Source: an uncultured Chloroflexia bacterium
Lineage (GTDB): Bacteria > Chloroflexota > Limnocylindria > Limnocylindrales > CSP1-4
DNA length: 64,000 bases
Direction of reading: 5' to 3'
NCBI GenBank assembly: GCA_963776865.1
Contig: CAVZOG010000003.1
Location: forward strand, 233,269 to 297,268
The notes under the pieces were generated by a model that worked only from the letters and a program-made list of their open reading frames with translations, was not told where the DNA came from and searched no databases. This document shows, piece by piece, positions 24,927-47,164 of this stretch; the stretch's first letter is position 1, and the number at the start of each line of letters is the position of its first letter. A program made the position numbers and the translations under genes.

Positions 24927-25250
24927 GTGCAGAACATCCTTCTCGTCGGCCAGGTCCTGGTCAGCATCGCGTTGATCGCGTCGATCCTTCTCCAGTCACG
25001 CGGCGCCGGTCTCGGCGCGACATTCGGTGGCGACTCATCGGTCTTCCGCAGCCGTCGTGGAATCGAGAAGCGGCTGTTCCAGTTCACGGTCGTCCTGACC
25101 GTCCTGTTCGTCATTTTCTCGATCGCGGCCTTCAAGCTCAGCCGAGCCCCTCTAGGCTCCGCGGCCGCGCTCAGCGGCCGTGCTAGACTTGGCCTTCGCC
25201 TGAAGGGTCCAAAAGGCCGTGAAAGGCTGCGCGCCGAGGTGGCGGAATAG
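24927..25250 (+). CDS. secG: preprotein translocase subunit SecG (3' end uncertain; ORF runs 18 nt into tRNA-Leu)
   Basis: GTG start. VQNILLVGQVLVSIALIASILLQSRGAGLGATFGG is the canonical SecG. Confidence 0.75.
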   Translation: MQNILLVGQVLVSIALIASILLQSRGAGLGATFGGDSSVFRSRRGIEKRLFQFTVVLTVLFVIFSIAAFKLSRAPLGSAAALSGRARLGLRLKGPKGRERLRAEVAE

Positions 25251-25319
25251 GTAGACGCGCTAGGTTCAGGACCTAGTGGCCGCAAGGTCGTGTGGGTTCA
25301 AGTCCCTCCCTCGGTACCA
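25233..25319 (+). tRNA. tRNA-Leu (anticodon CAG), type II with long variable arm, CCA encoded
   Basis: Acceptor GCCGAGG/CCTCGGT. Anticodon stem-loop CTAGG-TTCAGGA-CCTAG. T-loop GGTTCAAGTCC. Confidence 0.85.
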
Positions 25320-25321: not shown

Positions 25322-25406
25322 GCCCAGGTGGCGGAATTGGTATACGCGTACGTTTGAGGGGCGTATGACGAAAGTCATCCGGGTTCAAGTCCCGGCCTGG
25401 GCACCA
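25322..25406 (+). tRNA. tRNA-Leu (anticodon GAG), type II
   Basis: Acceptor GCCCAGG/CCTGGGC. Anticodon stem TACGT/GCGTA with loop TTGAGGG. Long variable arm. T-loop GGTTCAAGTCC. Confidence 0.8.
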
Positions 25407-25464: not shown

Positions 25465-25541
25465 GGGCGGTTAGCTCAGTTGGTCAGAGCGTCTCGTTTA
25501 CACCGAGAATGTCGGGGGTTCGAGTCCCTCACCGCCCACCA
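25465..25541 (+). tRNA. tRNA-Val (anticodon TAC)
   Basis: Acceptor GGGCGGT/ACCGCCC. D-arm GCTCAGTTGGTCAGAGC. Anticodon loop TTTACAC. T-arm GGGGGTTCGAGTCCCTC. CCA present. Confidence 0.9.
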
Positions 25542-25614: not shown

Positions 25615-25790
25615 TCACACGCGGTCGGCGATCGCCTCGTGCGGCACCACGTCCAGGACGGAGTCGAGGTGCGCCGCTGGCGCTTCTTGGAGGCCCGGCA
25701 GAACGTGGCTGTACGTGTCGAGCGTGATCGAGACGCTGGCGTGGCCAAGCCGTTCAGCAACCTTCAGGATGGTCGCGCTGTCGCCATCAG
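25615..25790 (-). pseudogene. tyrosine recombinase (phage-type integrase) C-terminal fragment (~55 aa)
   Basis: ...ATILKVAERLGHASVSITLDTYSHVLPGLQEAPAAHLDSVLDV matches the integrase C-terminal box (LGH-S-TLDTYSHV). Upstream in-frame sequence is not integrase-like. Lies 74 nt from tRNA-Val. Confidence 0.65.
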
Positions 25791-25850
25791 GCGGACTCGG
25801 TGAACGACGAGGCCTTGCGCGAGGCGCAGAGGTCCGACACGCCGCGTCCG

Positions 25851-26129
25851 CTAGACGTCGTGGAGCATGAACAGCTCGACCGGGCCGCTCTCCCACGCGT
25901 CGAAGTCGTCGTCCTCGGTGGCGGCCGCCAGCGCGGGCCGCGCCGCGGCGAGGTCGTCGTTCGACCGCCAGATCGCGAGACCGACGAGCGCGTCGGACCG
26001 CTCGTCCTTGAACGTGTGCGCCTCGATCGCGCCCAGGCCGCGCGCCGCGACGCCGAACCGGTGCATCGAGTCGATCACGTCCTGCTCGTGCTCCGGCTTC
26101 GGACGGTGGATCGCGAATTGGTAGAGCAT
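25851..26129 (-). CDS. ABM (antibiotic-biosynthesis-monooxygenase / Dabb) domain protein
   Basis: MLYQFAIHRPKPEHEQDVIDSMHRFGVAARGLGAIEAHTFKD...LVGLAIWRS is an ABM fold signature. GGAAGGGGA RBS before ATG 26129. Confidence 0.65.
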   Translation of the reverse strand: MLYQFAIHRPKPEHEQDVIDSMHRFGVAARGLGAIEAHTFKDERSDALVGLAIWRSNDDLAAARPALAAATEDDDFDAWESGPVELFMLHDV

Positions 26130-26331
26130 CGGTCCCCTTCCTGAGTGGTGAGGCCGCTGGGGCATCCAAATCGGCGGCCTTAATTGCCTAGTTCAATCAA
26201 AGTACTCAAGGGGCGTGACCACCACGTCCGGCAGCTTGACCCCGGTGGCGTTTGCACCGTTATACCCGTTCGGGTTCTGCTCCGGCTACTGCAAATGAGC
26301 GTCCCAACCATCGAAGTCAGTTCACGCATAT

Positions 26332-26514
26332 ATGCGCCAATACTTGTTCGGCCTGACGCCCGAGCAGTACGCCTCGATGCTCGAAGCACAGGAAACCGCT
26401 GCGCGATATGCAGAACCGATACCCCTGGCAAGCGACGTGCTTGCGGTGCCCGACGCGACCGATCCCGAACTGGCCGCAGCCTGGCCGAGCCGGCGGTCCA
26501 GTTCGATTGGGTAG
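26332..26514 (+). pseudogene. family-C fragment (copy 1): carries the EQYA and DPELAAAW motifs, diverges and ends early
   Basis: ...LTPEQYASML...VPDATDPELAAAW. The DNA is homologous to 27137-27230 for about 90 nt, then degenerates. Confidence 0.4.
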
Positions 26515-26533
26515 CCTGCCGGGCCTCCCTCGA

Positions 26534-26757
26534 CTAGACCTTCGAGCGCAGAACCAGTGAGGGTCCGGTCGGACAGCCCGAACAAGGAGCCCGATGCTGA
26601 CCCGACCTTGTACTGGATCTTGACGGTGTGCTGCCCGGCCGGAACGCTGGCGACGAACTGCATGCTGTGCGCTCCTCCCTGAAGGTTGTCTCGGTCAAAG
26701 ACGATCTCGAGCGGGGGGATTACGTGGCCGTCGACCACGGCGCGGACCATGCAAGTC
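26534..26757 (-). pseudogene. family-B fragment (copy 1): C-terminal ~70 aa only, with internal 1-nt indel
   Basis: CMVRAVVDGHV...HTVKIQYKVGSASG...DRTLT(+1)LRSKV*, compared with the intact paralogs at 28233 and 37063. Upstream frame is closed by TGA. Confidence 0.5.
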
Positions 26758-27136
26758 CCGACGCACCGTCGAGGATGCCCATCCGCAGGGTGACGTGCGC
26801 TATTGCTCGCTGTACCGCAAAAGCCTCAACCCGGTTACGGCGGATACGCTGCAAAATCTCATGGCCGAGGTCCCGGCGACAGATGGGGTTCCGCTCACCG
26901 TGCGACTCACCGATACAACCATCGAGTTCGCGAAGGTCGACAACGCCAACTTTGGATATCACCTGCAGTGCCAGCTCAGCGAAGTTTCCTTCTACGGGGA
27001 GGCCTTGGGCATCTTCGGCGCTGTAGTGACCTACAAGATCACGGCGGCGAACGGCTGACGCGCCATCAGGCGGCCACTGTGTGAAAGCCGGTCGATAAGC
27101 CGCCGGTAAGTCGCGCCGGGTTACCTGGCACGAGAG

Positions 27137-27391
27137 GTGCCTACCGTGCCCGGCGTGACCGATCCCGAACTGGCCCAAGCTTGGGCTGAGCTGCACGCCT
27201 CGACGCCGCCCGGTTGGTGGGTCGGTAGCCCCGGTCCGCGACATGGCGGCACCTGGACGATGTATGCGTTCGATCAGACAGAGAAGGCGCACATCGGCCG
27301 GCGAAGACGCGAATGGACCACCGAAGCCCCGTCAGAGCTCGAGTGCGTTTACGAGATGGCGCGCTGTCTGCGGAAGATCAGTGAGGGCTAA
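27137..27391 (+). CDS. family-C small protein (84 aa), intact copy: VTDPELAQAW...PPGWWVG...TWTMYAFDQTEK...SELECVYEMARCL
   Basis: GTG start after GAGAGG RBS. The same motifs recur at 26362-26484, 30320-30447 and 37599-37700 with synonymous substitutions (ctg/cta, gcc/gct). Confidence 0.6.
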   Translation: MPTVPGVTDPELAQAWAELHASTPPGWWVGSPGPRHGGTWTMYAFDQTEKAHIGRRRREWTTEAPSELECVYEMARCLRKISEG

Positions 27392-27415
27392 GGATTCGAC
27401 TGCGGGAGTATCTTC

Positions 27416-28126
27416 GTGTCGTCGGAACAGACAGCCACGAGGAGGGATCCGATGTCGATCGACAGCACCGCGACACGTTCGCGACGCTCGCTCCTGTTCG
27501 CGGGGCTCGGAGCGCTGGGCGCAGCCGTCGGCGCCACGCTCGCGCGCCCATCGCCAGTGCACGCCGATGACCCCGACGACGTCACGTTGGGCGCCGCGAA
27601 CACCGCTCCCACGGCGACAGAGATCCGGAACACCGGCGATAGCCTGACCGCGATCCGAGGTGTCGGGACCACCGGCCCGGGTGTGACCGGGAGGAGCAGG
27701 GACCACCACGGGACCCAGGGCTTCAGCGACGACTTCACGGGAGTCTGGGGGCAGAGCACGTTCGACTACGGAGTGATCGGTTTCGCGCCGTCCGGGGCAA
27801 GGGCCGGCTCCCTCGGCTATTCGGCAGGGAACAAGACCGGCGTGTACGGCCTCAGCAAGGGCAACGGCGAGGTCCCGCGCACGACCCCCGACAAGACCGG
27901 CGTGTACGGACGTGCCGTCGGAGGCACGGCCGCGGTCGGTGTCCGCGGGGAGTCGGGCACCGGTCGGGGCGGGTACTTCATCGGGAACGTCGCCCAGCTG
28001 CGGCTCAAGCCATCAGACTCGCAATCGCATCCCCCGGCCGGACTGGCGGGCGACCTCTTCCTGGACAGCTCTAGACGCCTCTGGCTGTGCAAGGGCGGCT
28101 CCACGTGGGCGCGCCTGGACACGTAG
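27416..28126 (+). CDS. family-A Tat-exported Gly-rich protein (236 aa) with conserved C-terminal motif AQLRL-P...AGDLFLD-S-RRLWLCKGGSTW
   Basis: Tat signal SRRSLLFAGLGALGAAVGA. G-x-Y-G repeats. 25 nt downstream of the family-C gene on the same strand. Confidence 0.7.
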   Translation: MSSEQTATRRDPMSIDSTATRSRRSLLFAGLGALGAAVGATLARPSPVHADDPDDVTLGAANTAPTATEIRNTGDSLTAIRGVGTTGPGVTGRSRDHHGTQGFSDDFTGVWGQSTFDYGVIGFAPSGARAGSLGYSAGNKTGVYGLSKGNGEVPRTTPDKTGVYGRAVGGTAAVGVRGESGTGRGGYFIGNVAQLRLKPSDSQSHPPAGLAGDLFLDSSRRLWLCKGGSTWARLDT

Positions 28127-28232
28127 CGAGCGCTCCACGGTCGATCCGATCCCGAATAGGCCAGCCGGTACGCCGGGCTACTGTGTCGCGCTGAAAAGTT
28201 GCGCCGGGTGACCGTTCGCCGTGAGTGACCTC

Positions 28233-28751
28233 CTAGACCTTCGAGCGAAGCACGCTCAACGTCATGTCGTCCATCCGGAACGTGTAGCCGGGCGCACTTG
28301 CTGCGTACTGAATTTTGACGACATGTGATCCGGCCCCAAACGGGCCTGCAACCCAGTGCGTGCTACGTGTCTCATAGGTCTTACTGAGGGCCGGTCTGAA
28401 AGAGCTAATCCCCGGGCCGACGTTCACACCGTCGACCAGGGCGCGAACCGGGCAGACATGCTCCGACACTGCCCCGGACGCGACGCACGCCGCATTGGCC
28501 GAGAACTGGATCATGAACAGGGCGGTTGTGTTGCTCGGGACGTTGACCGACAAGGACATGTCCGGCACGTCGACATAGCTGAATGCCGTGGTGTTGACGG
28601 ACGTGTCGCGAGTGACCGCCCTCAACGCCGTTATCCCGCGGCCGCTCTTGGTGACCGTGGCCCCGAGTACGACGCCGCCCGTGAGCAGCAGCGCGCCGAG
28701 CAACGCGATGAGAACGATGAACGAGCGTGGATGCCTGAGCCGTGCGGACAT
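28233..28751 (-). CDS. family-B signal-anchored protein (~172 aa) ending ...VVKIQY...MTLSVLRSKV
   Basis: N-terminal TM/signal FIVLIALLGALLLTGGVVLGA. GGAGGG RBS. Paralogous to 37063..37590 (C-x-VRA-VVDG, VKIQY, LRSKV). Confidence 0.7.
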   Translation of the reverse strand: MSARLRHPRSFIVLIALLGALLLTGGVVLGATVTKSGRGITALRAVTRDTSVNTTAFSYVDVPDMSLSVNVPSNTTALFMIQFSANAACVASGAVSEHVCPVRALVDGVNVGPGISSFRPALSKTYETRSTHWVAGPFGAGSHVVKIQYAASAPGYTFRMDDMTLSVLRSKV

Positions 28752-28934
28752 GAGCCCTCCCGCGCCGCCTCGCAGCATTTCTGCGCTCGTCGCGCCGCGT
28801 GGGCGCAATCATGCGCCGGCTGTCGATAGACAAAAGTCCGGCTAGGCAGCAGGTGGATCATGACTGGCAGGACGTGCGACGCCGGTCAGCATCGTTCCCG
28901 CCGATCCGTTCGTGCGCCCCGAACGGAGGGCATC

Positions 28935-29715
28935 ATGTCCACGGATAGTGGGGCCGGGGATCTCGGGTCAGAGAGCTTCGGGCCGTCGCTCGAGTGTCTT
29001 CACCGGCGTCCTGGTTGCGACCCTGCTCGTCGTCGTCTCCGTGGTCGGTCAGGCCGCTGCGCACGACTCGGGCACGACCAGTCACCTGTGGGAGCACTTC
29101 AAGGGCTTAAAGGTCGCCGGGACGATCAATGCCGACACCAATCCCGTCGACTGGACGAAGCTCAAGGGCGTGCCCGCCGGGCTGGCCGACGGCGTCGACG
29201 ACGGCGTCACGGTGGCCGGCTTCGGCCTGAACAAGGTCCTCAGTGCGTTCTGGGTCGACCCCGAGGAGGTTCAGAAGCGCGTCACCACGGCATGCCCTGC
29301 GGGGCAGGCGATCAAGTCGATCAGGCAGGACGGCACGGCGGCGTGCGCGCTGGTCTCGCAGGGGGTCTCAAAAACGAGCGCCAGCACCGGGATCATCTGC
29401 AACGACTGGTGCGAAGAGGGGAGGGTTACCCTCAGTCCCGGCACATGGGCGGTAAGCGCCAAGATCGTTGTCTACAACTGGGGCCAGTTGCAGGAGGACG
29501 AGATCGAAGTCGACTGCCAGCTTCACGCCTCCGGTGCAATCGACAGGGCGTCGTTCTGGCTGGAAGACGACAGTCAGGCGACGCTGCACCTTCAGATTCT
29601 GGCGACCATAGCGCAAGGCGGCGACCTGGGCGCCTACCTCGACTGCAGGGACAATGACGTCGGGGACCTGGGTGGATCCGACCTTTCGATCATCGCCATC
29701 CGAACTGGCGGCTGA
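28935..29715 (+). CDS. Cys-rich secreted/anchored hypothetical protein (probable frameshift near the N-terminus)
   Basis: GGAGGG RBS before ATG 28935. The signal/TM segment SVFTGVLVATLLVVVSVVGQAAAHD sits in the adjacent frame (ORF 28912..29715). Eight Cys in the mature part. Confidence 0.55.
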
Positions 29716-30275: not shown

Positions 30276-30607
30276 CAGCGAGCTGACAAGGGGACGGTGC
30301 CTAGATTCGCGACAGTGGCGGATCCCGATCTAGCTGAAGCCTGGAACGAGCCACGTCAACGTAGCCGGTAGCCGTGGTGCTGACGGGCGTGCGCTCGCGC
30401 TTCGGCAACTGGCCCCTGATATCGTCCCAGCAGTACGCGCCCGACGAACGGGCATCATGCCGGTCTATGGCTCCGGAGGGGTAACGCTCGATGCCACAGG
30501 CTCCGATGCCAGGAATCCGGAGCACCGTCGATCAGAACTACCTCAATGGCACGGTCCTGGCGCCACTCAAGATCAAGAACAATCGCTGAGGTACGACCGC
30601 GCTGAGC

Positions 30608-35669: not shown

Positions 35670-35745
35670 GCCGAGATAGCTCAGTTGGTAGAGCACGCGA
35701 CTGAAAATCGCGGTGTCGCCAGTTCAATTCTGGCTCTCGGCACCA
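35670..35745 (+). tRNA. tRNA-Phe (GAA)
   Basis: Acceptor GCCGAGA/TCTCGGC. Anticodon loop CTGAAAA. T-loop GGTTCAATTCC. CCA encoded. Confidence 0.9.
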
Positions 35746-35777
35746 CCACATCTGGCCGGTCGGGCAGATGTGCTCCG

Positions 35778-35853
35778 AGCGGGAGTGGCTCAGCTGGTAG
35801 AGCGTCACCTTGCCAAGGTGAAGGTCGCGGGTTCGAACCCCGTCTCCCGCTCC
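35778..35853 (+). tRNA. tRNA-Gly (GCC)
   Basis: Acceptor GCGGGAG/CTCCCGC. Anticodon stem TCACC/GGTGA with loop TTGCCAA. T-loop GGTTCGAACCC. Confidence 0.9.
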
Positions 35854-35899
35854 ATTCTTCCAACCGAACCAGCCGGCATGGCCGGCCCATGAGCACCGC

Positions 35900-35973
35900 T
35901 GGCCCTTCGTCTAGTGGTAGGACAGCGGACTTTGGATCCGTGAACCGAGGTTCGAATCCTCGAGGGCCAGCCA
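35900..35973 (+). tRNA. tRNA-Gln (TTG)
   Basis: Acceptor TGGCCCT/AGGGCCA. Anticodon loop CTTTGGA. T-loop GGTTCGAATCC. Confidence 0.8.
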
Positions 35974-35986
35974 ACACAAGCTTCCG

Positions 35987-36062
35987 GGCGACGTACCCAA
36001 GCGGTTAAGGGGGAGGTCTGCAAAACCTCTATTCACCGGTTCGAATCCGGTCGTCGCCTCCA
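35987..36062 (+). tRNA. tRNA-Cys (GCA)
   Basis: Acceptor GGCGACG/CGTCGCC. Anticodon stem GAGGT/ACCTC with loop CTGCAAA. T-loop GGTTCGAATCC. Confidence 0.85.
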
Positions 36063-36074
36063 GAAATCACACTC

Positions 36075-36106
36075 AGAACCGGCCTGAAAGGGCCGGTTCT
36101 TTGTAT
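36075..36106 (+). terminator. rho-independent terminator AGAACCGGCC-TGAAAG-GGCCGGTTCT + TTGTAT
   Basis: 10-bp stem plus T-rich tail after the tRNA cluster. Near-identical copy at 41679-41712. Confidence 0.7.
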
Positions 36107-36184
36107 CGCGTGGTAGCAACGCGATAGCAACCGCCCGATACGGCAGGGGTGACGCTTGCACGGAGATGTCGGGGATTCGAGAAT

Positions 36185-36880
36185 CTAGCCCAAAGCCAAC
36201 CAAGCGATGGCTGTGGCGCTGCTACGCGACGAGCTGATCTTGATCGTGAACTGGTGCGTCGTTCCATTGACGGTCTGGAACCACAGGCTGCGACCGCTGA
36301 GGTTCACCTTCGGTGTGAGCAGCACGAATGTGTTGGCGTTGATCACATTTGACGTGACGACGACGGACGTCTTGCCGGCACCAATGGTCGCCACTCCGCT
36401 CGCACTGAATTCCAGCCTGCCGTTGGCACGCAGGGCAATGGGGCCAAGGGCCGTGACTGCGACGCCCTCGCTCGAGGAGCCGTAAAGACCGTATCCGGCG
36501 TTCTCGGCGATCCCTGCGACGCCGATACCGCTGCCGTCGACATAACCCAACACGCCGTTGCGCCCCGCCTGGCCAAATCCCAACACCGCCGAGCCGTATG
36601 TGTCCTTGGCGTGCCCGGCGATCGCAGCGCTATCCGGAAGAGCATTAACGCCCTTGTCGGTCACCGCGAAGCCGTAGATGCCGGGACTCTGATTCTGGGT
36701 CACGACGAGGGCAGTCGGCGAGGTGCCGGTCTTCGTCTGGCCGACTGTCACCGCTTCGCCATTGGCGGCCGAGGATGGAGTTGGGCGACCCAACGCATTC
36801 GCTGCCAGTGCGGCAGCTCCGCCGACCGCGGCGGCGAGGATTCCTCGACGCGAACGTTGCGTCATCTCGGGGCTAGACAT
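36185..36880 (-). CDS. Tat-exported Gly-rich protein, divergent member of family A (231 aa)
   Basis: Tat motif QRSRRGILAAAVGGAAALAANA. G-x-(Y/L)-G repeats. C-terminal ...GRSLWFQTVNGTTHQF relates to the RRLWLCKGG motif. Confidence 0.65.
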   Translation of the reverse strand: MSSPEMTQRSRRGILAAAVGGAAALAANALGRPTPSSAANGEAVTVGQTKTGTSPTALVVTQNQSPGIYGFAVTDKGVNALPDSAAIAGHAKDTYGSAVLGFGQAGRNGVLGYVDGSGIGVAGIAENAGYGLYGSSSEGVAVTALGPIALRANGRLEFSASGVATIGAGKTSVVVTSNVINANTFVLLTPKVNLSGRSLWFQTVNGTTHQFTIKISSSRSSATAIAWLALG

Positions 36881-37062
36881 CGTTCCCTCCTAGCCCCCAA
36901 TTCGGCCGACTGTATCAGTGGCCTTTCTGGGCGTGACCGATCTAGAAGTGACCGTCGCCTGGGTCCACAGGCTTCTCATTGACGAACGCCCGATGCTCCC
37001 CGTATCTGAGGGGATGGTCACGGGTACGAGGGGACCTGTATGTCACACGCGAGAGGTGAGAG

Positions 37063-37590
37063 ATGGCGAACTTCAAGCTAGGCCGCTTACATATGACGCA
37101 TAGCGTCACGCGGCGCGCGCTTGCCCTGCTCGTGATCGGGTTATGCCTGGCCCTGACCGCTGAGACCGTTGTTCTTGCCGCCGCCGTGAAGCGCAACGGC
37201 GGAGCAGTGACGGCCGTTCGCACCGCAGTCAACCCCGGCTACGACAACTGGACGCAGTCGGCAACGCCCACTGACGTGGTCGGCATGTCGGTCACGGTTA
37301 AGGTTCCCGCCGGGGAACGCGCGCTCCTGGTGGCCACGTTCTCGGCGACGAGCGTATGCGATGGCGGCTGTTTCGTTCGCGCCGTGGTGGGAAGCACGAC
37401 ACTGACGCCCGACCTAGCGATCGTCGATTCCCCGGATCGCCATGTGCCGATGAGTCGGCAATGGGTGTCAGCGGTGCTCAATCCCGGCGAGTACACCGTG
37501 AAGATTCAGTACTGGGTGGGTGACAGCGACGGCAACATCTTCATCCTCAAGGACCGCATTCTTACGGTGCTGCGTTCCAAGGTGGTCTGA
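37063..37590 (+). CDS. family-B signal-anchored protein (175 aa), paralog of 28233..28751
   Basis: GAGGTGAGAG RBS. TM ALALLVIGLCLALTA. C-FVRAVVG, YTVKIQYWVG and RILTVLRSKVV motifs. Confidence 0.7.
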   Translation: MANFKLGRLHMTHSVTRRALALLVIGLCLALTAETVVLAAAVKRNGGAVTAVRTAVNPGYDNWTQSATPTDVVGMSVTVKVPAGERALLVATFSATSVCDGGCFVRAVVGSTTLTPDLAIVDSPDRHVPMSRQWVSAVLNPGEYTVKIQYWVGDSDGNIFILKDRILTVLRSKVV

Positions 37591-37591
37591 G

Positions 37592-37818
37592 CACCTGGGA
37601 GCAGTACGCCTACGACACGACCGAGAAGCAGGTCGGCAAGCGCAGCCGTGAGCGGACGGCTGAGGCTTCATCAGAGCTCGAGTGCGTCCACGAGATGGCG
37701 CAGTATTTCGGGAGATCAATGAGGGCCGGGCTCCAGGGCAAGCCGGAAAAGCTTTCGCTGACCGGCCTACGCCTTGACGACGATCTTCACCCAGCTTGTT
37801 CCGCCCTTGCATAACCAA
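37592..37818 (+). pseudogene. family-C fragment (copy 3): TWEQYAYDTTEK...SSELECVHEMAQY, lacks the DPELA N-terminal part
   Basis: Homologous to residues 40-80 of 27137..27391. Begins inside the stop of the preceding gene, has no own start, and its 3' part overlaps the family-A gene on the opposite strand. Confidence 0.45.
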
Positions 37819-38460
37819 AGGCGCTTGGACTTGTCGAGGTAGATGTCGCCGGCCTCGCCCGACGCCGGATGTGTGGTCGTCGTGGCGGGCTCGAGCCGGA
37901 TCTGAGCGGCCTTGCCCTTGAAGCGACCGCCACGGCCGTTGTCAGACTGGCCATAGACACCCGAGCCCGTGCCACGGGCAACGCCTGACGTGCCATTGCC
38001 AGCGGCCAGGCCCTCGCCGAAGACAGCCGGCCCCGACCCGTTCGTGATCCCGTACACAGCGGCGAAGCCGTTGCTTGCATGGAGATTCTTCACCCTTGAC
38101 CGCAGGCCCGGTGTTGGCGAACTTCAGGCCGTGCACGCTGATGCCTTCGTCAGAGACGGCGAGGCCCTGCAAGCCTTGGGGGCCCTGGACGATGGCTCCG
38201 ATGTCGTTGTCCGATATCGCGACCAGGCCCATACCATTCCCCGTGTTGCGGGCGAGCAGCGTCTGGCCGGAGCTAGTGGACGAGATGGACGTGCCCGAGG
38301 TCCCAGCATCGTTTGGCGTGCCGAGTATCACCGGATTGCCTGCGGCGGCCGCAGTCGGCAGTGGACGCAGGACCGCGCTGGCGACCAACGCCGCCAGTCC
38401 CGCGAAACCTCCGGTCAGTAGCGCCCTGCGCGATCTAAGCTCCAGTGCTGAATCAGACAT
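37767..38460 (-). CDS. family-A Tat-exported Gly-rich protein (copy 3), frameshift ~38095-38110
   Basis: N-terminal ORF has Tat motif LRSRRALLTGGFAGLAALVASA. C-terminal ORF ends ...AAQIRLEPATTTTHPASGEAGDIYLDKSKRLWLCKGGTSWVKI. Confidence 0.65.
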
Positions 38461-38749
38461 GTGACCCTCCGGCGCGGCACCGCCCCTCGACGGTGTTGGG
38501 CGGGCTCGCCTGAGGCGGGTCGACGCACAAAGCGTTGGCCGACTCTACACGCAGCCGACTTGGCGATCGGCGAGACAGCGGTCGACTGCTGCTCGAGATG
38601 GCGCGTTGTCAACGGATCATCGCCGAAGGCGGCGTCCCGAAGTAGTGCTTGTCGCTCCGGGTCACGGCCCTCGGTTGCGACCATGGTCACGACGATTTTC
38701 ACGCTTGACCGAAGGATTCCACCAGTTGTTGGACGACTACTGTCATGAG

Positions 38750-39304
38750 ATGCGGAGCCGCGAGCAAGCAGAGAGCCCTCAACGCGTTGTGGCGTTCGCG
38801 AAGCCGCTCGCCGCTGACGACGCCGCATTTCGCGCTTGGTACGACACCTCGCTGCCGCGCGTGTATTCGTACCTGTTCACGCGCTGCGGCCGCAATACGG
38901 ATCTCGCCGAGGAGCTGACGCAGGAAACGTTTGTGGAGGCGGTCAGATCACGCCCGACCGCTACTGCGGAGCAATCGCTCAATTGGCTGATCGGAATTGC
39001 GCGCCACCGGCTGCTCGATCACTTCCGCAGCGTCGAGCGGCGCGAGCGGCGCTTCGTGCGGCTCGTTGCCAGTCGTCGGCCGCAGAGCGTCTGGATGGAC
39101 GACCCGGACCCGCTGGGTCACATCCAGGACGCACTCGGGCGGCTACCAGCGGCTCAACGGGCGGCCGTGGTGCTGTGCTATGTGGACGGGCTGGCCGTCC
39201 GTGATGCCGCCGCGCTGTTGCATCGCACGGACTCGTCCGTTGAATCACTTCTTGGCCGCGCACGCGCCTCGCTACGCGATTCACTTTCGGAGGAGCCGCG
39301 ATGA
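38750..39304 (+). CDS. ECF-type RNA polymerase sigma factor (sigma-70 family, group 4)
   Basis: Region 2 (FRAWYDTSLPRVYSYLFTRCG...AEELTQETF) and region 4 HTH (AAVVLCYVDGLAVRDAAALLHRTDSSVESLL). ATGA overlap with the next gene. Confidence 0.85.
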   Translation: MRSREQAESPQRVVAFAKPLAADDAAFRAWYDTSLPRVYSYLFTRCGRNTDLAEELTQETFVEAVRSRPTATAEQSLNWLIGIARHRLLDHFRSVERRERRFVRLVASRRPQSVWMDDPDPLGHIQDALGRLPAAQRAAVVLCYVDGLAVRDAAALLHRTDSSVESLLGRARASLRDSLSEEPR

Positions 39305-40722
39305 ATACGCGCGAACAGTGGAGCGATCAGGAGCTGATCAGTGCGCTGCGCGGCATCGACCAAGACCTGCAGCCGCGGCCCGAGTTCGCGGACCGTCTGT
39401 TCCAGGTCGTCCTCCGCGAGAAAGCCGCGCGCCGGCGCCCCACGTTCCTGTTCATGGCCGCCGCGGCGCTGCTGGTGGCCTCCATCGCCGGTGCGGCTGT
39501 GTTCGGCAGCGGTCCGTTTCGCGACCCGAACGTCCGCACCGTCATCATCGCACCGACCGCGTCGGCCCCTACGTCGACACCTACTGCGAGCGCCATGGCA
39601 ACTGCCGGCGTGTCATGGACCGGCGCAGTACGCGCCGACGCAGACACGATGCCGCTGTTAACCATGGACGGTCCCGCTGTATGTTCCGCCGAGAACCCAA
39701 TCAGTTGGGAGGATGAGCTCGAGTCCCCGACGGGATTTGTCGACATCATCGAGACACGTTGGTCACCAGGCCCGGGTACCAGTCTCCCGGTCCTCATGCT
39801 CTCCTCGAAGCCGCCGCCTGCTTTGGAGCTGGACCCAAGCCTCGCGCTGATCGAGTACGGGCTGGTGTTCGATGAGAATCTTGACGGCACACCGGACTAT
39901 GAATTAGGTATCAACAACTCCCCGGACGGCGCCTCATATCGCGTCTGGGTAACCGATCTGGCCCGTGGTGGAACGGTGGAACAAATCGGCCCCCCGTACG
40001 GCGCGCCGGTTGAGTTCAGGCATCCGGACGAGCAGGACGCGGGCGAGTCTCCATCCATGTCGTTCGTGTTGCTAACCGGCGTCCCCACACCCCTCGCGCT
40101 CGGTCGCGAGTACCGCTACTACGCTTGGTCTTCGTACTCCGAGAACGGTTCTGTCGTGGCATGGGATTACGCGCCCAACTTCGGCTGGCTGCAACTGCCC
40201 ACCTGCCAAGCTTTGCCTCGGGCTTCCGAGGAGACCGTGCCGCCCGGCTGGACGCTCCATGACCGGCCACTACCCGGAATGGGCAGCAACAAGGCCGGCG
40301 AATACGGATGGACTGGCGCACTGGGTTCCAGAAGTTGGATGCACAGCGTGATAACCGATCCCACTTATGGTGATGGCTACCGACAGACCCAGCTCACCTT
40401 TGCCATCCAGGACGATTGCTTCCCTCGGGCAGCAGGTGCAGAGCCGACGTCGTTGAGAGTAGCCGGGCTCGACGGCCTATACCTCGTGCCCTACCACGAT
40501 CCGAGCGTGCTGTTGTTCTCCAAAGGCGGCAAGACGACCGGAGCGTATGCCCTGCCTATCGGCGACCGAACGCTGTGCGCCTACGTCACATGGGACGCGG
40601 CGACGACACCGGAAGAACTGAGCGCAGCGCACGCGGTGGTGGGTTCCATCCGCGGCCAGCCCTTCGGGGGGAACGGTATTCGCATCAACTTCACGCTGCC
40701 TGCCGGTTGGGACACCGGATGA
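39301..40722 (+). CDS. anti-sigma factor: cytoplasmic N-terminal domain, single TM, ~400-aa extracytoplasmic domain
   Basis: Translationally coupled to the sigma gene. TM TFLFMAAAALLVASIAGAAVF at residues 48-68. C-terminus ...INFTLPAGWDTG. Confidence 0.75.
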   Translation: MNTREQWSDQELISALRGIDQDLQPRPEFADRLFQVVLREKAARRRPTFLFMAAAALLVASIAGAAVFGSGPFRDPNVRTVIIAPTASAPTSTPTASAMATAGVSWTGAVRADADTMPLLTMDGPAVCSAENPISWEDELESPTGFVDIIETRWSPGPGTSLPVLMLSSKPPPALELDPSLALIEYGLVFDENLDGTPDYELGINNSPDGASYRVWVTDLARGGTVEQIGPPYGAPVEFRHPDEQDAGESPSMSFVLLTGVPTPLALGREYRYYAWSSYSENGSVVAWDYAPNFGWLQLPTCQALPRASEETVPPGWTLHDRPLPGMGSNKAGEYGWTGALGSRSWMHSVITDPTYGDGYRQTQLTFAIQDDCFPRAAGAEPTSLRVAGLDGLYLVPYHDPSVLLFSKGGKTTGAYALPIGDRTLCAYVTWDAATTPEELSAAHAVVGSIRGQPFGGNGIRINFTLPAGWDTG

Positions 40723-40823
40723 CACGGCCCAGGCGCGACTGACGGACGCGACCGAACTACTTCTCGCCAAGGGACGAAATCCACCCCACCAATGGACGCT
40801 CGAATCAGAGCAGGAGGTAAGCG

Positions 40824-41669
40824 ATGTCCCGTACGCGCTTCAGTCTCGCCGCGACAGCGCACATCGTCGTCGCGAGCTGCTTGATGATCGGATGCACCAG
40901 CGGTGCGCCGTTGGCGACAGCCACGCTCGCTCAGCCGTCACCAACGCCTGTCGACATAGTCACCTCATCGCCAACGCCTCCGCCGACAAACGCGCCCACG
41001 GCGTCTCCAGACGACGCCTCATCGGCACCGGCGGCGCAGAACATCGAGGAAATGAATGCCTTCGGAGAACTCCCTCCCGGCACCTATTGGGTTGCTGGTG
41101 AACCGGACAACACCTGGCGCGTGCAATTCAGCGTCCGCTCTTCCGGGTGGAGCGCGTTCCTGGGACCGTTCAAACAGGAGACGGCCGAGGGCAAGACCCA
41201 CCGGATCATGACCCTGAACTTCTTCGACATCCGAAACACCGTCAAGGACGCATGCACCGATCACAAATACCGCGATCCCGCGGTAGGTCCGTCGGTGGAC
41301 GACTTGGCGGAGGCTGCGTCCTCGCTCTCACCATTTGTCGTCAAATCCGCGCCCACCGACGTAACGGTATTCGGCTACTCCGGCAAACACCTCATCCTGG
41401 AGGTCCCGGATGTGCCGTTCAGCGTCCGCAACGGACAGCCTTCATTTGCCGAGTGCGACACAGGCGGCCTCCTCAAATCCTGGATCGGGCCACCGCTGTC
41501 GTACGCGTACTACGGCTACGCGGAACCGGGCCAAACGGAGGAGCTCTGGATACTCGATGTCGAGGGGAAGCGGCTCACGATAAGCAGGCTCTCGCACCCC
41601 GACTCGCCACCGCAAGACGTTGCGGAGCTCAACGAAATCTTCGAATCGATCGAGATCTATCCAGAGTGA
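40824..41669 (+). CDS. lipoprotein carrying the ~190-aa domain shared with the anti-sigma 43972..46041 C-terminus
   Basis: Lipobox LMIG-C-TSG. WRVQFSVRSSGWSAF ... EELWILDVEGKRLTISRL...DVAELNEIFESIEI aligns with ARFTLPAGWST ... EVWIVDPDRESIVLHTW...DRAELQGILESLSL. Confidence 0.7.
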   Translation: MSRTRFSLAATAHIVVASCLMIGCTSGAPLATATLAQPSPTPVDIVTSSPTPPPTNAPTASPDDASSAPAAQNIEEMNAFGELPPGTYWVAGEPDNTWRVQFSVRSSGWSAFLGPFKQETAEGKTHRIMTLNFFDIRNTVKDACTDHKYRDPAVGPSVDDLAEAASSLSPFVVKSAPTDVTVFGYSGKHLILEVPDVPFSVRNGQPSFAECDTGGLLKSWIGPPLSYAYYGYAEPGQTEELWILDVEGKRLTISRLSHPDSPPQDVAELNEIFESIEIYPE

Positions 41670-41678
41670 GTGGACTCT

Positions 41679-41712
41679 CAGAACCGGACCGAAAGGGCCG
41701 GTTCTTTGTAGA
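41679..41712 (+). terminator. rho-independent terminator GAACCGGACC-GAAA-GGGCCGGTTC + TTTGTA (twin of 36075..36106)
   Basis: Stem-loop plus T tract 10 nt after the lipoprotein stop. Confidence 0.7.
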
Positions 41713-41945
41713 CGCGGTCAACTCACTCCGGGAAACACTCGTCCGTGGCATACAGCGTGCTCCGGAGAGGAAAGCCCTGCTACGGCCGGAAGTCGGAAGT
41801 GGTGGGACCTTGGCCCGAACGTAATGGATGCAGTGGCGGCTCGGGATCGCAGCACGAAATGGGAGTGTAGGGTGCAGACAAGAGGTATCGCGCGACCTGG
41901 GTCGAGAGGGAGCACATCGGCGCACAGCACAGAGGGGGTTGTCCT

Positions 41946-42488
41946 ATGAAGCTCCGCGTCGCAGTCGCACTCGCTCTCGCCATGACCTTACTGTTGCCTG
42001 GTCTGGCGCTCGCAGACACCAAAATTCGGGACCAAGGACTGTTCGGCGAACACAGGCTGCGCGACCGGTGGAGCAACCCGGGTGCAATCTGTACCTACGA
42101 CAATTCGTGGGGGCAGCTTCAGTCGATCGAGGTCCGGGCGCCGCGCGTTCTGGCTCGTGACGTGAGTTCGAGCGAGGACTCGCAGAATGTCGGGTGGCAG
42201 TTCTCGATCAAGCGTCGCTTCGAGGACGGCCGCCAGGTGACCGTGTATGCGAGCTCCACGCAGATCGCAACCGCCACGGACACGGCCGCTGCCCCGTTCG
42301 CAAGGATGTCTACCGCCTTCGTCCCTGACTACCCCGGTCCTTTCAAGGTGGTAGTTCGAATGTTCTGGTACGAGACAGGCGGGGCTATCGAGGGTATGGC
42401 CAAGCACCGGATCGATCACTACACCCGCATCACCGCTGAGGATTCCAACGCTCCTCACGAACGGGTGTGCGAGACCGGCTACGTGTAA
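41946..42488 (+). CDS. secreted hypothetical protein (signal peptide)
   Basis: MKLRVAVALALAMTLLLPGLALA signal. 180-aa ORF. Confidence 0.6.
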   Translation: MKLRVAVALALAMTLLLPGLALADTKIRDQGLFGEHRLRDRWSNPGAICTYDNSWGQLQSIEVRAPRVLARDVSSSEDSQNVGWQFSIKRRFEDGRQVTVYASSTQIATATDTAAAPFARMSTAFVPDYPGPFKVVVRMFWYETGGAIEGMAKHRIDHYTRITAEDSNAPHERVCETGYV

Positions 42489-42872
42489 GCGACGAGCAGG
42501 CCTCGCCAAGGGGTCGGTGTTCCGGCCCCGCTGGATTCCCAAAAGGCCCAGTTGGGCGCGTCGTCGACTGGGCCAGCGCCTTGGCGTAAAGCTGTACACG
42601 GCGAACGAGTCGCTCGGCATGAGCCGCTCAGCCGTGGTCAAGGCCAAGTAATAGCGCCTGGCAATCTCGAGGCGCAGGCGCTCCAAGCGGTCGAAACCTG
42701 ATCGCCGTTCTGACTGTCGTCGGCTCAGACGTCGGTGCTCTCCTGAAACGACGATCTACGTCGCCAGGAGCGAGCGATCAGAACCTTGTTCGAGCCTGGC
42801 AGACGATGGAGACTTATATCGGGCGCGCTCCGAGCACGCTTCTGGGCGCCATCCTGAGCCAGACATTGCGGT

Positions 42873-43214
42873 CTAGACCGACCCGCGCTCTCCTTCGTCG
42901 GGCTCGTTGGTTCTCGCCCCGGGCACGTCTTCGTCACTCACCCGCGCCATGCCCCAGATCTCGGACGCTATCTCCATCTCCTCGCGTGCCGCTCGATGGT
43001 ACGGCGCTGTGGATGGCGTCTCGGTCTTCCGTCGCCCTTCTGCATCTCGGAGTGCGTCGATGCGGTCCATCATGTACTCGGCCGACAGCTGTTGGAAGCG
43101 CTGGCGGTGTTCCTCGACCTCGGCCTTTAGAGCCTCGAGCTCGCCGTCCGTCGTGCCGTCCAGGCGCCGCTGAGCATCGCGCCAGTCTGCGAGGGACTCT
43201 TCTATCTTGCGCAT
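42873..43214 (-). CDS. small coiled-coil hypothetical protein (113 aa)
   Basis: Charged, heptad-like ORF (MRKIEESLADWRDAQRRLD...) divergent from the sigma factor gene. Low confidence. Confidence 0.4.
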   Translation of the reverse strand: MRKIEESLADWRDAQRRLDGTTDGELEALKAEVEEHRQRFQQLSAEYMMDRIDALRDAEGRRKTETPSTAPYHRAAREEMEIASEIWGMARVSDEDVPGARTNEPDEGERGSV

Positions 43215-43396
43215 CTGGTTGAAATTATGGCGCGGACATCAACTGGCTGTCACGGCGCCGCATGGGAACGTTTCAATGGCGAAGCGTTCACCCTGCGTCG
43301 CCCAGTCGGTTTCCAATTCCGAAGCATTATCCAATGCAGCGCGAAGATTGAACCGCTGAGGGCCTGTCCCAAGTCATAGGGTTAGAGGCCGGTTGA

Positions 43397-43975
43397 ATGA
43401 CCGGCACGCACCACGGCGGCTATGGCATGCGGCAGGAATTAATCGAACGGGCGATGGCCGGCGATCGGGATGCCTTCGGGCAACTCGCCGCGCACGATGT
43501 CGACCGTCTTCATGCCGTAGCGCATTTGATCCTGCGCGATTCCCACCTCGCTGAGGATGCCGTTCAGGAAGCACTGATCAGGTGTTGGCGCCAGTTGCCC
43601 AAGTTGCGCGATCCAGCGAGCTTCGACGGCTGGCTGTATCGCATCCTGGTCCACGCCGCAACGGACGAGCACAAACGTCGCCGGCGTTTCGCGGGCAGCG
43701 TCCAGAACGTCCGATTCGAGCCTGCAGCACCCGACGAGACGCGAGCCGTGGCCGACAGAGAGCAACTCGATCAGGGTTTCGAACGGCTGTCACTGGATCA
43801 TCGGGCAGTGGTCGTGCTGCATCACTTCGCGGACCTGCCGCTTGTCGAGGTGGCCGCGGCGCTCGGAATCCGAGAGGGCACGGCCAAGTCCCGGTACCAC
43901 TACGCGATGGCGTCGCTGAGGGCCGCCCTAGATGCTGAAATCCGACTTGCTGCTGCAGAAGGGGCACAGGCATGA
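43397..43975 (+). CDS. ECF-type RNA polymerase sigma factor (second copy)
   Basis: Region 2 (AFGQLAAHDVDRLHAVAHLILRD...AEDAVQEALI) and region 4 (AVVVLHHFADLPLVEVAAALGIREGTAKSRYHYA). AGAGG RBS. ATGA overlap with the next gene. Confidence 0.85.
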   Translation: MTGTHHGGYGMRQELIERAMAGDRDAFGQLAAHDVDRLHAVAHLILRDSHLAEDAVQEALIRCWRQLPKLRDPASFDGWLYRILVHAATDEHKRRRRFAGSVQNVRFEPAAPDETRAVADREQLDQGFERLSLDHRAVVVLHHFADLPLVEVAAALGIREGTAKSRYHYAMASLRAALDAEIRLAAAEGAQA

Positions 43976-46041
43976 ACGCCGAGCGAACCGTCACCGACTG
44001 GCTGAACGCCCAGGCTCCCACCCACGCTCCGGCGGGCCTGATCGGCGAGACGATTGACCGTATCGCCGCCGTACCTCAGGAGCGCGTCCTGTGGAGACGA
44101 CCCTTGGCTGCGGCGCACCGCGGCAAGTCACGATCGCTGCTTGCGCTAGTTGGGGCGATCCTTGCGATCAGTGTTGTGGGCGGCCTCGGAGTGGTCGGCG
44201 GGATGAACATCCTGATTGGACCGTCGGAGTCATCCTTGCCAACGACTTCGCCACCAGCGTCACCGTCCCCCGAGGCGACAGCATCACCGCAGCCGACGGG
44301 GTCGCCCCTTTCAATTGCGCCGCCAGGCGGCGGGCGAATCGCGTTCAGCACGAATGGAACCGACCCGGCGAAGGAAGGCGACATCTACCTCGTGACGCGT
44401 GGACAGGTACGCAGAATCGTCGGCTCGGATGCCGACTCCCTCAACGAACGCTGCCCAGCGCTGTCAGCGGATGGCACACAGCTGGCCTACGGCCAGGCAC
44501 GCGGCACCGATCAGGACGGACATACAGACGCCGCCCTGGTCATCGCGGATCTCGATGACTTGGGAAACGTCATCGCCACGCGCGGATTCGGGTTAAGCGG
44601 CTCCGGAGTTGATGAATCCGCGGCACCGCCGTGCGCGATCTGGTCGCCCGACGGTCAGTGGCTGGCGTTCGGCGTGGCCGTCTGGAAGGAGAGACCGGAC
44701 GGCGAAGTGGCGATCAACACGAGCGAAGTCCGGATAATCCCCGTCGGGGGACAGTCGATGACCTCACTCCCCGTGTCCGCCACCGATCTCGAGTGGTCGC
44801 CGGACAGCTCGCAGCTCGCGGTCGCAAGCGGTGTAGAGATAAGCATCTACCCGGTGGCGATGCCAGAACCGCACGAAACCCTATCGGGCACGCAAGGCGC
44901 AACCCAAATCAGCTGGTCGCCTGATGGCCAGTTCATCGCCTACCAGCGCGGGGAGCAGGACCAGCTGGTGGTGCACGACATCGTCACGGGTGAGAACCAC
45001 GTATTGGCGAGCGGATTCTCGATCGTCCATGGCATCGGACCAGTTTGGTCGCCAGCCGGAGATCAGATCGTGTACCAGCGGGTCTGCAATTCCTACATCA
45101 CCGAGGACGGAACGACCAAGCCGTGTCGCGAGCAGAGCGACGTGGTTCTGCTAGAGGCGGGTGCGGGTTCGAGCTGGCGACCGACCGAGGTGACGGAGCG
45201 GCTCATGCCCCCGTTCGTGCCGGATGGCCACAAGGAATTCGGGCCTTTGCCATCTCGCGTGACCTGGTCACCCGATGGCGACAGCCTCCTATACGCAACC
45301 TTTTTCGGGACGCTCGTTGCGGTTCCCGTCTCGGGTGATCAGACCGCCGTGGTTCTTGCGCAACACGACGACATGTCGGTCCATGAGGGAGGCTTCTCCA
45401 TTCCGATCCAGATTTGGGGTGTTCAACCAGCAGTGGTCATTCCGTCAATACCGGCTGAGTCCGTCTTGTTGGAGCCGGGCACGCACACTATTGCCCAGGG
45501 CACCTGGACTTCTCTGGGCCGGTTCCCACCGATGACTGGGCAGGCCCGGTTCACGCTCCCCGCAGGCTGGTCGACAGACAGCCGCGGCCGGGTATTCAAG
45601 GGAAGCGAGAACGGCCCGAGCGGTATCGGTCTGCAGTTCGGCACGATCAAGGACGTGTACGCCGATCCGTGCAGCTGGTCGGCAGGTGCTGTCGAGATCC
45701 AGCCAGGCTCGACTCGGTCCGGGTCCTTTGACGTGGCCACCGCGCTCGCCGGCGATGAGACGACGCTATCACGGGCGCGGCTGGGGTCGGACTTGGCCTA
45801 TCACCTAACCCTTGCCGTGCCGGCAACTATTTCCGACTGTGACAATGAAGAGTTCCGCAGATGGAACGCCCCTGACGGCCGTCGCACGTTCGAGCATCGC
45901 GCCGGCCAGATCGATGAAGTATGGATCGTCGACCCAGACCGTGAGTCGATCGTTCTGCACACCTGGTATTTCGCGGGCACCACAGCCGAAGATCGAGCGG
46001 AGTTGCAGGGGATCCTCGAATCCCTCTCGCTGCCCATGTGA
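43972..46041 (+). CDS. anti-sigma factor with TM, Ser/Pro linker, TolB/WD40-like beta-propeller (WSPDG repeats) and C-terminal ~190-aa domain shared with lipoprotein 40824..41669
   Basis: Coupled to the sigma gene. TM LLALVGAILAISVVGGLGVVGG. Repeated ...WSPDG(Q/S)... blades. C-terminal ARFTLPAGWSTDS...ELQGILESLSL. Confidence 0.75.
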   Translation: MNAERTVTDWLNAQAPTHAPAGLIGETIDRIAAVPQERVLWRRPLAAAHRGKSRSLLALVGAILAISVVGGLGVVGGMNILIGPSESSLPTTSPPASPSPEATASPQPTGSPLSIAPPGGGRIAFSTNGTDPAKEGDIYLVTRGQVRRIVGSDADSLNERCPALSADGTQLAYGQARGTDQDGHTDAALVIADLDDLGNVIATRGFGLSGSGVDESAAPPCAIWSPDGQWLAFGVAVWKERPDGEVAINTSEVRIIPVGGQSMTSLPVSATDLEWSPDSSQLAVASGVEISIYPVAMPEPHETLSGTQGATQISWSPDGQFIAYQRGEQDQLVVHDIVTGENHVLASGFSIVHGIGPVWSPAGDQIVYQRVCNSYITEDGTTKPCREQSDVVLLEAGAGSSWRPTEVTERLMPPFVPDGHKEFGPLPSRVTWSPDGDSLLYATFFGTLVAVPVSGDQTAVVLAQHDDMSVHEGGFSIPIQIWGVQPAVVIPSIPAESVLLEPGTHTIAQGTWTSLGRFPPMTGQARFTLPAGWSTDSRGRVFKGSENGPSGIGLQFGTIKDVYADPCSWSAGAVEIQPGSTRSGSFDVATALAGDETTLSRARLGSDLAYHLTLAVPATISDCDNEEFRRWNAPDGRRTFEHRAGQIDEVWIVDPDRESIVLHTWYFAGTTAEDRAELQGILESLSLPM

Positions 46042-46168
46042 CGCGTTCTTGTTCTCAACGGGCCGCGGCAAGCTCACGGCGTGCAGGCGCCGCTGTCTTG
46101 ACATCGATACCTTGGTGCAGGTGTAAGTTGCCTCCAGCGACCATTCGAAACGCTTAGCTGGAGCCCCG

Positions 46169-46956: not shown

Positions 46957-47164
46957 CCGGACGGGAGCAGCCGTCGTTGCCGTGGCCTGCGTCGCGTGTT
47001 GCCTGCCGCTCGTAATCGCCGCTGGTCCCGTGGCGATCGGGGCCGGTGCTGTGGCCGCGACAGTTGGCGTCGGGGTCGGGATCGCGCACAAGATGCGCCG
47101 CACTAGGCCCGACCGAACTGAGGTCGTAACCGAGGTCGACAAGGAAACGTACCCGGCCCGCTGA
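46943..47164 (+). CDS. small membrane protein (73 aa) with CVACC motif
   Basis: ATG overlaps the MerR stop. One or two TM segments (AAVVAVACVACCLPLVIAAGPVAIGAGAVAATVGVGVGIA). Confidence 0.45.
   Translation: MPEIDRTGAAVVAVACVACCLPLVIAAGPVAIGAGAVAATVGVGVGIAHKMRRTRPDRTEVVTEVDKETYPAR

Follow-up and report, generated by a model that had tools for sequence, protein, structure and literature searches.

Small-gene arrays and proposed single-gene turnover at a probable tRNA-Val-proximal flexible island of an uncultured Chloroflexia bacterium

The described systems closest to the locus analyzed here are tRNA-targeted genomic islands, the orphan-module arrays of Rhs, contact-dependent inhibition (CDI; cdiA-CT/cdiI) and Vibrio cholerae type VI secretion system (T6SS) genes, and integron cassette arrays. 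For the orphan-module arrays, the proposed mechanism is displacement in which one end recombines through a homologous anchor and the other is joined illegitimately (PMC5361080). The locus is part of a 64,000-nt stretch of DNA from an uncultured Chloroflexia bacterium (the window), in which three small protein families, A, B and C, are encoded by intact genes (C1, A1 and B1) next to decayed copies (Table 1). We favour, with moderate confidence, the reading that it is the tRNA-Val-proximal part of a flexible island, whose cargo would be gained and lost through C-anchored recombination and illegitimate joins, the decayed trio being an eroded module. Islands of this type are already known; what is new is the behaviour of C, which forms arrays, is often truncated and is linked to tRNA genes, together with four unannotated protein families (A, B, C and a neighbour, X).

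Related contigs and loci compared with the window are designated by L numbers (L001, L005, L091, etc.); the related contigs are Microflora Danica Nanopore-only assemblies with one round of Medaka polishing, and the window is probably of the same kind. Synteny with two distant relatives, L001 and L090 (core genes 74-77% identical), stops just past tRNAVal and resumes at gene R (31144); in between, L001 and L090 differ. The content after tRNAVal and after the A gene is different in every relative, and L001, L090, L005, L091, L004 and L007 are all unlike the window at these sites. The G+C content of the island region is 62-65% (window ~65%) versus 71-72% in the 3 kb upstream. Beside tRNAVal lies a remnant of a tyrosine integrase: within an open reading frame (ORF) at 25615-26169, residues 134-173 match phrog_1 (E=1.5e-4) and an LGH..TxxYxH box is present, and no full Pfam match was obtained for this ORF.

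The locus resembles tRNA-targeted islands in its position directly 3′ of a tRNA gene, the adjoining integrase remnant, the variable content among relatives and a G+C content below that of the adjacent core. A further, tentative likeness comes from L091, whose homology to the window starts inside tRNAVal at ~25489, so that a ~53-nt 3′ half stands without its 5′ half and no tRNA is called; the DNA upstream of it contains two additional B paralogues, a cyclase-like gene and C fragments. From this arrangement we infer a displaced 3′ half of tRNAVal, i.e. putative tandem accretion at the tRNA. Unlike tRNA-targeted islands, the locus has no intact integrase (no intact recombinase was found in or beside either of the two A/B/C clusters of the window) and no far-end tRNA repeat in the window, genes turn over singly with sharp borders, and arrays are punctuated by a small coding gene family instead of tRNA fragments.

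Polymorphism is seen directly in two near-identical contigs, which with the window make up three haplotypes. L091 (95-96% identical) carries 918 bp more between 26764 and 26765, composed of the 5′ half of the decayed B copy (B′), another C fragment and the 5′ half of a gene designated Y; the junction (GACGCA/CCGTCG) shows 2-nt microhomology. A 918-bp deletion at this point accounts for both the loss of the 5′ half of B′ and the truncation of Y. In L091 a full-length copy of B′ (3178-3669) ends in frame (..DRTLTVLRSKV-stop) and Y is a complete gene of 194 amino acids (aa) at 4035-4619, while the window holds an 87-aa stump, Y′, with 94% identity to its C-terminal 87 aa; Y′ is also 45% identical to the product of a 185-aa gene in L001. 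Contig L005 (98% identical) is without window positions 26429-26934 (506 bp), again with 2-nt microhomology and with the left edge at the start of the decayed C copy (C′), and keeps just the last 40 aa of Y. An initial annotation of this DNA had compared the locus to polymorphic, rearranging loci, and the 918-bp and 506-bp indels that separate contigs 95-98% identical, both within the decayed segment, bear this out.

The decayed copies themselves are diverged. C′ is a 61-nt piece with 82% identity to 27124-27184, including 13 nt before the C1 start, at an offset of exactly 700 nt (direct repeat D3). The 17-mer common to C′ and C1 has a chance expectation of 0.01 in the window, and tblastn gave E=0.016; a broad C profile failed to detect the piece. 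The truncated C copy initially placed from 26332 onwards therefore contains a real C 5′ piece, but its homology is limited to 26424-26484, absorbed into a 60-aa ORF (26332-26514) whose remainder is unrelated to C. The decayed B copy with a 1-nt indel, also reported initially, was confirmed. The stretch 26556-26762 aligns with profile positions 98-165 (of 171) of family B (E=3.5e-12), the part read directly reaches ~26765 and keeps the C..G.C.VRAVVDG motif, and one extra G puts the final seven codons, LVLRSKV, and the stop (26534-26536) out of frame. The low identity of B′ to B1 (42%) and to B2 of the second cluster (49%) marks it as an old paralogue and not a recent duplicate or a collapsed repeat. 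The order and orientation of C′ and B′ are collinear with those of C1, A1 and B1, which points to C′/B′ being a paralogous module minus A and most of C and B.

Family A behaves as a sharp-edged single-gene cassette with unusually low synonymous divergence between genomes. The block comprising the C1-A1 spacer and A1 is 90% identical to its counterpart in L001 and 91% to that in L090, versus 74-77% for the flanking core genes, and synonymous divergence (dS) is 0.24 for A versus 0.6-0.95 for five core genes. The left side of the block is bordered in L001 and L090 by a degenerate remnant of the C 3′ end; on the right side four genomes (the window, L001, L090 and L091) diverge into unrelated sequence at most 17 nt past the stop codon. 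In L090 (2774-7654) and L001 (10793-11806), one to three DUF7640 paralogues flank the A cassette, replacing B, X and a further gene, Z.

For family C, a word-indexed search found six relatives and an exhaustive profile search 405 representatives (clusters at 50% identity) at E≤1e-3, with 171 at E≤1e-10. The 99 immediate neighbours of C in 80 metagenome loci were essentially singletons, the commonest family being extracytoplasmic function (ECF) sigma factors (n=5), and no conserved partner gene of C was found among them. Exported proteins made up 33% of these neighbours versus 30% of the background (p=0.8); a specific placement of C beside exported proteins was therefore rejected. A six-frame profile search of 87 loci distinguished 77 full C units, 29 3′ fragments, 11 5′ fragments and five internal fragments, i.e. 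~37% of the units are truncated, the excess of 3′ over 5′ fragments being in part a possible detection bias, as the C-terminus is the most conserved region. More than one unit was present in 33 of the 87 loci, though most of the contigs are only 1-5 kb long. Adjacent units were co-oriented in a ratio of 32:7, tested against 50%, a lenient baseline since neighbouring bacterial genes are co-oriented more often, and their median spacing was 870 nt. Truncation points are scattered and no conserved sequence follows the C stop codons. DNA-level conservation extends over the final ~30 nt of the ORF and is retained by even very small remnants.

C is also associated with tRNA genes: the 80 metagenome loci (241 kb) contain 17 of them, distributed over 11 loci, versus ~2.4 genes and ~1.7 loci expected, a ~7-fold excess; most of them lie 200-800 nt upstream of C in the same orientation. 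Individual loci illustrate how C units meet other DNA: a 300-nt insert splits C in L073, an A3-like gene stands between C pieces in L004, and in L068 the C start and an A-like gene share 4 nt. The claim that the three families recur as a group did not survive as an obligate association, given the mostly unrelated neighbours of the 405 C representatives, the occurrence of A alone in L003, L088 and L089, and the six relatives of B, all confined to this lineage. Co-occurrence of A, B, C and X as neighbours does recur within the lineage (L004, L005, L006, L091), but not outside it.

The indel haplotypes, microhomology junctions, sharp borders of the A block and C array statistics are observations; the following course of events would unite them. 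An integrase-carrying element targeting tRNAVal would have seeded the island, an origin of which the ~50-aa integrase stump is partial evidence. Turnover since then may have proceeded by gain, exchange and loss of single-gene modules, with diverged C paralogues providing the homologous anchor for homology-facilitated illegitimate recombination. Incoming "C plus cargo" DNA would cross over inside C and join illegitimately at its other end; such C-anchored events would add or swap cargo and leave partial C copies behind, and microhomology deletions would then erode the redundant copies. C′-B′ would accordingly be what at least two deletions have left of an older C-(A)-B module, paralogous to and collinear with the intact one, and A, B and X would be cargo, most likely encoding cell-envelope or extracellular proteins that vary between strains. 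The mechanism is the one proposed for orphan-module arrays (PMC5361080), here applied to a different anchor and to non-toxin cargo.

With those arrays the locus shares a conserved homologous anchor, illegitimate junctions, truncated anchor copies piled up between diverse downstream genes, and differences between close strains. The resemblance in array formation, the 5′-truncated fragments beside intact genes, the tandem B paralogues (three in L006, two in L091) and the two alternative C-terminal types of family A might indicate a true polymorphic toxin/immunity array, to which the locus had initially been likened, with A as a secreted toxin, B (perhaps C) as immunity protein and the fragments as orphan modules. 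We judge this quite unlikely, and the toxin/immunity reading was not supported. No toxin, immunity or defence family was matched, and in place of a large secreted protein with a variable C-terminal toxin there is A, of 224 aa, whose 45-residue C-terminus (A1-type ending) is the most conserved part of the family alignment and too small for an enzyme. B is not downstream of A, being convergent to it (B1 and A1) or divergent from it (B2 and A3). The cargo between C units carries no toxin/immunity signature and includes a HIT-like enzyme (labelled from our own reading of an HxHxH motif in L004, with no profile match), ECF sigma factors and SnoaL-like proteins, and no apparatus of the type V, VI or VII secretion systems used by polymorphic toxins was noticed in the examined part of the window. 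Truncated C pieces do punctuate the arrays, but the anchor is a separate ORF of 80 aa and not the constant part of a large toxin gene, and the loci are tRNA-linked. That the fragments stem from collapsed or chimeric assembly of paralogues is very improbable. The Nanopore-only origin of the relatives, and probably of the window, and single-base frame breaks in B′, A2, L005 and L091 would be compatible with an artefact, but the same arrangement occurs at 95-98% identity in the independent contigs L005 and L091, B′ is too diverged from B1 and B2 to be a collapsed copy, and similar C fragments are present in 80 further metagenome contigs from other projects.

Integron arrays resemble the C arrays in being co-oriented, in consisting mostly of single unrelated small genes with ~0.9-kb spacing and a recurring separator, and in having a discrete cassette (here A) common to divergent genomes. 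These properties, the A-block borders identical in four genomes with unrelated DNA directly behind them, and the DNA-level conservation of the C 3′ end could point to a dedicated, integron-like capture system, in which C or its conserved 3′ end would bound the cassettes and the enzyme would be encoded elsewhere. Such a system appears unlikely: the recurring element is a coding gene under purifying selection, truncated at variable points and followed by nothing conserved; neither IntI, attI nor attC palindromes were found (no dedicated attC covariance search was run), nor was a GTTRRRY core or a recurrent inverted repeat at cassette borders; and no recombinase recurs among the most frequent Pfam families of C neighbours, with 25 of 59 families listed. 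Moreover, with 50-80% identity among them, the copies of one locus are too diverged to be recent insertions, and the observed junctions have just 2-nt microhomology. It is equally doubtful that family C marks an undescribed cassette-exchange system of soil bacteria, which would capture and shuffle precise single-gene cassettes such as the A block in co-oriented, tRNA-proximal arrays, with a small coding gene or its conserved 3′ end in place of an attC site, and in which C, dsRBD-like and with a structured 5′ leader, may participate or exert regulation. An improbable, functional alternative is a three-gene module of a cytoplasmic regulator or chaperone (C), a Tat (twin-arginine translocation)-exported surface fibre (A) and its membrane anchor or receptor (B), duplicated and with one copy decaying. 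In its favour, two sites in the window as well as L004, L005 and L091 have the three genes no more than 2 kb apart, A comes immediately after C or what remains of it in the window, L001, L005, L090 and L091, and the 4-nt overlap in L068 points the same way. However, A occurs without B or C in three loci (L003, L088 and L089), hundreds of C relatives have unrelated neighbours that are not enriched for exported proteins, and gene order and orientation vary between the clusters.

Several points also weigh against the flexible-island reading. As the window contains neither an active recombinase nor a second tRNAVal 3′ repeat at a far end, the integration would be a historical event that we infer from its remains. 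The L091 junction could in principle be a misassembly, and single-base frameshifts are unreliable in Nanopore contigs polished once with Medaka. The expected signature of a full copy upstream with 3′ fragments downstream is weak (7 versus 3, plus five pairs of a full unit followed by a 5′ fragment), and the lenient baseline for co-orientation and the possible bias in the fragment counts belong here as well. A, B and C cluster repeatedly in the lineage (two sites in the window, L004, L005, L006 and L091), and a functional link among them may exist.

The intact C and A genes on the plus strand with a convergent B gene (27137-28751) were confirmed as ORFs at the positions initially assigned. In a public protein collection the products, from one contig of 451,174 bp, are 81 aa (C1, start at 27146), 224 aa (A1, ATG at 27452) and 172 aa (B1, ATG at 28751); GGAGGG precedes the ATG of A1. 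The ratio of nonsynonymous to synonymous divergence (dN/dS) between intact copies is 0.16-0.56, which confirms constraint at the protein level. A, B, C and X had no match in Pfam, NCBIfam, PHROGs or PADLOC, and in scans of these libraries that also covered Y, Z and A3/B2 only the integrase stump was matched; A, B and C profiles against PDB sequences yielded nothing but one signal-peptide-like match. The families are thus protein-coding and uncharacterized, as first described, and profile searches reached no characterized domain. X recurs next to C in L004 and L006; a relationship between X and B was rejected (hhalign probability 0.2%).

All 28 relatives found for family A carry a twin-arginine signal; the number of GxGVxGxSxx repeats varies among them, and their C-termini are of two alternative types. 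A1 contains these Gly-rich decapeptide repeats and ends with the motif AQLRL..HP..GDLFLD..RLWLCKGG..W. Its N-terminus, TRSRRSLLFAGLGALGAAVGATLARPSPVHA, is followed by a cleavage site before DD, and SRR.LL is conserved across the family alignment; the twin-arginine motif, hydrophobic stretch and A-x-A site together make export through the Tat pathway a sequence-based prediction. An AlphaFold2 (AF2) model of A has a confidence (pLDDT, predicted local distance difference test) of 84, exceeding 90 for residues 80-230, contains almost no regular helix or strand, and had no match to any solved fold. The three loci with A alone are L089 (Nocardioides stalactiti), where it stands among housekeeping genes, and L088 and L003, where its neighbours are unrelated genes.

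The predicted fold of C is dsRBD-like (double-stranded RNA-binding domain), alpha-beta4-alpha. Its likeness to dsRBDs, the HPF/pY hibernation factors and phage T7 Gp1.2 is at the fold level only, with 3-15% identity and no sequence-profile match, and neither profile membership nor functional residues place C among dsRBD or HicA-like proteins. HicA, which has a dsRBD-like fold as well, had suggested a HicA-like toxin; this reading was rejected, as there is no profile match and no conserved His. C would be a cytoplasmic protein, possibly a nucleic-acid binder or small protein inhibitor, although the fold likeness gives no ground for assigning it either activity; it is not specifically tied to A or B. 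Pfam searches for domain fusions in 67 C relatives and 10 longer C-containing proteins gave no informative match. The only clear two-domain relative, P0091 (214 aa), has a 135-aa N-terminal domain, without a Pfam match, fused to C. A scan of viral contigs for C was negative, and tblastn found no match in phages (queries A and C) or in plasmids (query a C relative).

The ribosome-binding site and start codon of C1 lie within a nested hairpin with a predicted RNA folding energy of -37.1 kcal/mol (z=-3.6). A similar architecture is present in L006 (7230-7300, z=-3.5), with hairpin copies at L006 7243-7292 and L005 3356-3406. The pattern is confined to the C 5′ ends of the closest relatives and was rejected as a general feature of C. 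A role in translational control or as a site of protein binding is conceivable. A possible sigma-54-like reading of the TGGCACG-N4-GTGC stretch upstream of C1 was set aside; the same bases form the inner hairpin.

Further C-like pieces were noted around the intact genes. In the A1-B1 spacer, 28146-28162 and 28195-28212 are short matches to the C1 5′ region (CCGATCCCGAATAGGCC and AAGTTGCGCCGGGTGACC). The former has two mismatches to the 17-mer common to C1 and C′, the latter alone is not significant, and both stand in reverse order relative to C1; rearranged remnants of C and coincidental similarity are both possible explanations. A weak piece resembling the C N-terminus follows gene Z at 30297-30350 (56% over 18 aa, E=0.04); the order in L007 is the reverse, with a C(1-22) piece ahead of a Z-like gene.

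In the second A/B/C cluster, B2 sits between a weak C 5′-like piece and a solid C 3′ piece. The frame break in A2 could be a sequencing error, given the Nanopore-only assemblies of the relatives, and A2 would then be intact. At this site L007 has only the tail of A3 and a C fragment before homology jumps to window position 47159. L004 carries a minus-strand array composed of a C piece, an A3-like gene, C(19-84), the HIT-like gene, C(67-84), a signal-peptide protein, C(58-84) and another signal-peptide protein. A 37-nt terminator-like hairpin located just after tRNACys (36069-36105) recurs 5.6 kb downstream (41674-41710) with 92% identity; the pair flanks A3, B2, the C pieces, A2, an ECF sigma/anti-sigma pair and a 281-aa gene, and may mark the borders of an inserted segment. 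In L019, a Joint Genome Institute (JGI) soil contig (1914-3855), tRNA-Phe/Gly/Gln/Cys genes are followed 1.4 kb later by tRNALeu(taa), with only a C(29-94) fragment between them. The same tRNAs are 18.7 kb apart in the window (compared span 35670-54900), so much of the region at 36-54.8 kb may be accessory DNA. Small C fragments lie just upstream of ECF sigma genes in three loci (window 38586-38642, L006 543-593 and L004 14405-14467). Two ECF sigma genes in the window (38606-40722 and 43397-46041) are each followed by a gene for a large unannotated protein; the second of these proteins has PD40/WD40-like beta-propeller repeats, and similar sigma-plus-propeller pairs occur in L004 and L089.

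Table 1. Features of the tRNA-Val-proximal locus and of the second A/B/C cluster (positions in the window).
Feature	Position	Strand	Description
tRNA-Leu genes	25233-25319 and 25322-25406		First two genes of the tRNA triplet (ARAGORN, Rfam)
tRNA-Val(tac)	25465..25541	+	Third of three tRNA genes; putative island anchor (ARAGORN, Rfam)
Tyrosine integrase remnant	25615..25770	-	C-terminal, ~50 aa; contains LGHASVSITLDTYSHVLPG; adjoins tRNA-Val
C′	26424..26484	+	5′ fragment: codons 1-16 of a C paralogue and the 13 nt before them
B′	26534..26765	-	Last ~75 codons of a third B paralogue
Y′	26765..27058 (ORF from 26795)	+	3′ half of a 194-aa exported protein gene
Nested hairpin	27108..27159	+	Spans C1 ribosome-binding site and start; outer stem GTCGCGCCGGG/CCCGGCGTGAC; inner GGCAC-GAGAG-GTGCC
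C1	27137..27391	+	Family C; intact, 81-84 aa; without signal peptide
A cassette	27392..28135	+	C1-A1 spacer, A1 ORF and ~8 nt; sharp-bordered block common across genomes
A1	27452..28126 from ATG (ORF 27416-28126)	+	Family A; predicted exported protein, Tat-type signal
B1	28233..28751 (ORF to 28808)	-	Family B; ~172 aa, signal-anchored, convergent with A1; conserved Cys, VKIQY and VLRSKV
X	28912..29715	+	267 aa, N-terminal signal or anchor; fourth lineage-specific family
Second cluster	36185..38460	both	After tRNA-Phe/Gly/Gln/Cys genes; tRNA-Cys at 36062
A3	36185-36880	-	Second cluster
Weak C 5′-like piece	36918-36965	+	76% over 34 nt; putative
B2	37063-37590	+	Second cluster; divergent from A3
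C 3′ piece	37587-37709	+	Codons 38-76; abuts B2 stop
A2	37767-38460	-	Split into two ORFs, frame break near 38075 (aagggtgaag)

If the flexible-island reading is correct, the locus would give a sequence-level view of island turnover in abundant uncultured soil bacteria. Genomes with only ~75% identity would exchange single genes as sharp-edged modules, recombination would recurrently be anchored in a small, conserved family of ORFs, and microhomology deletions would erode redundant copies within a population. Strain-variable functions at the cell surface are candidate roles for the four unannotated families defined here (C, A, B and X), and C arrays could mark hypervariable regions in metagenome-assembled genomes.

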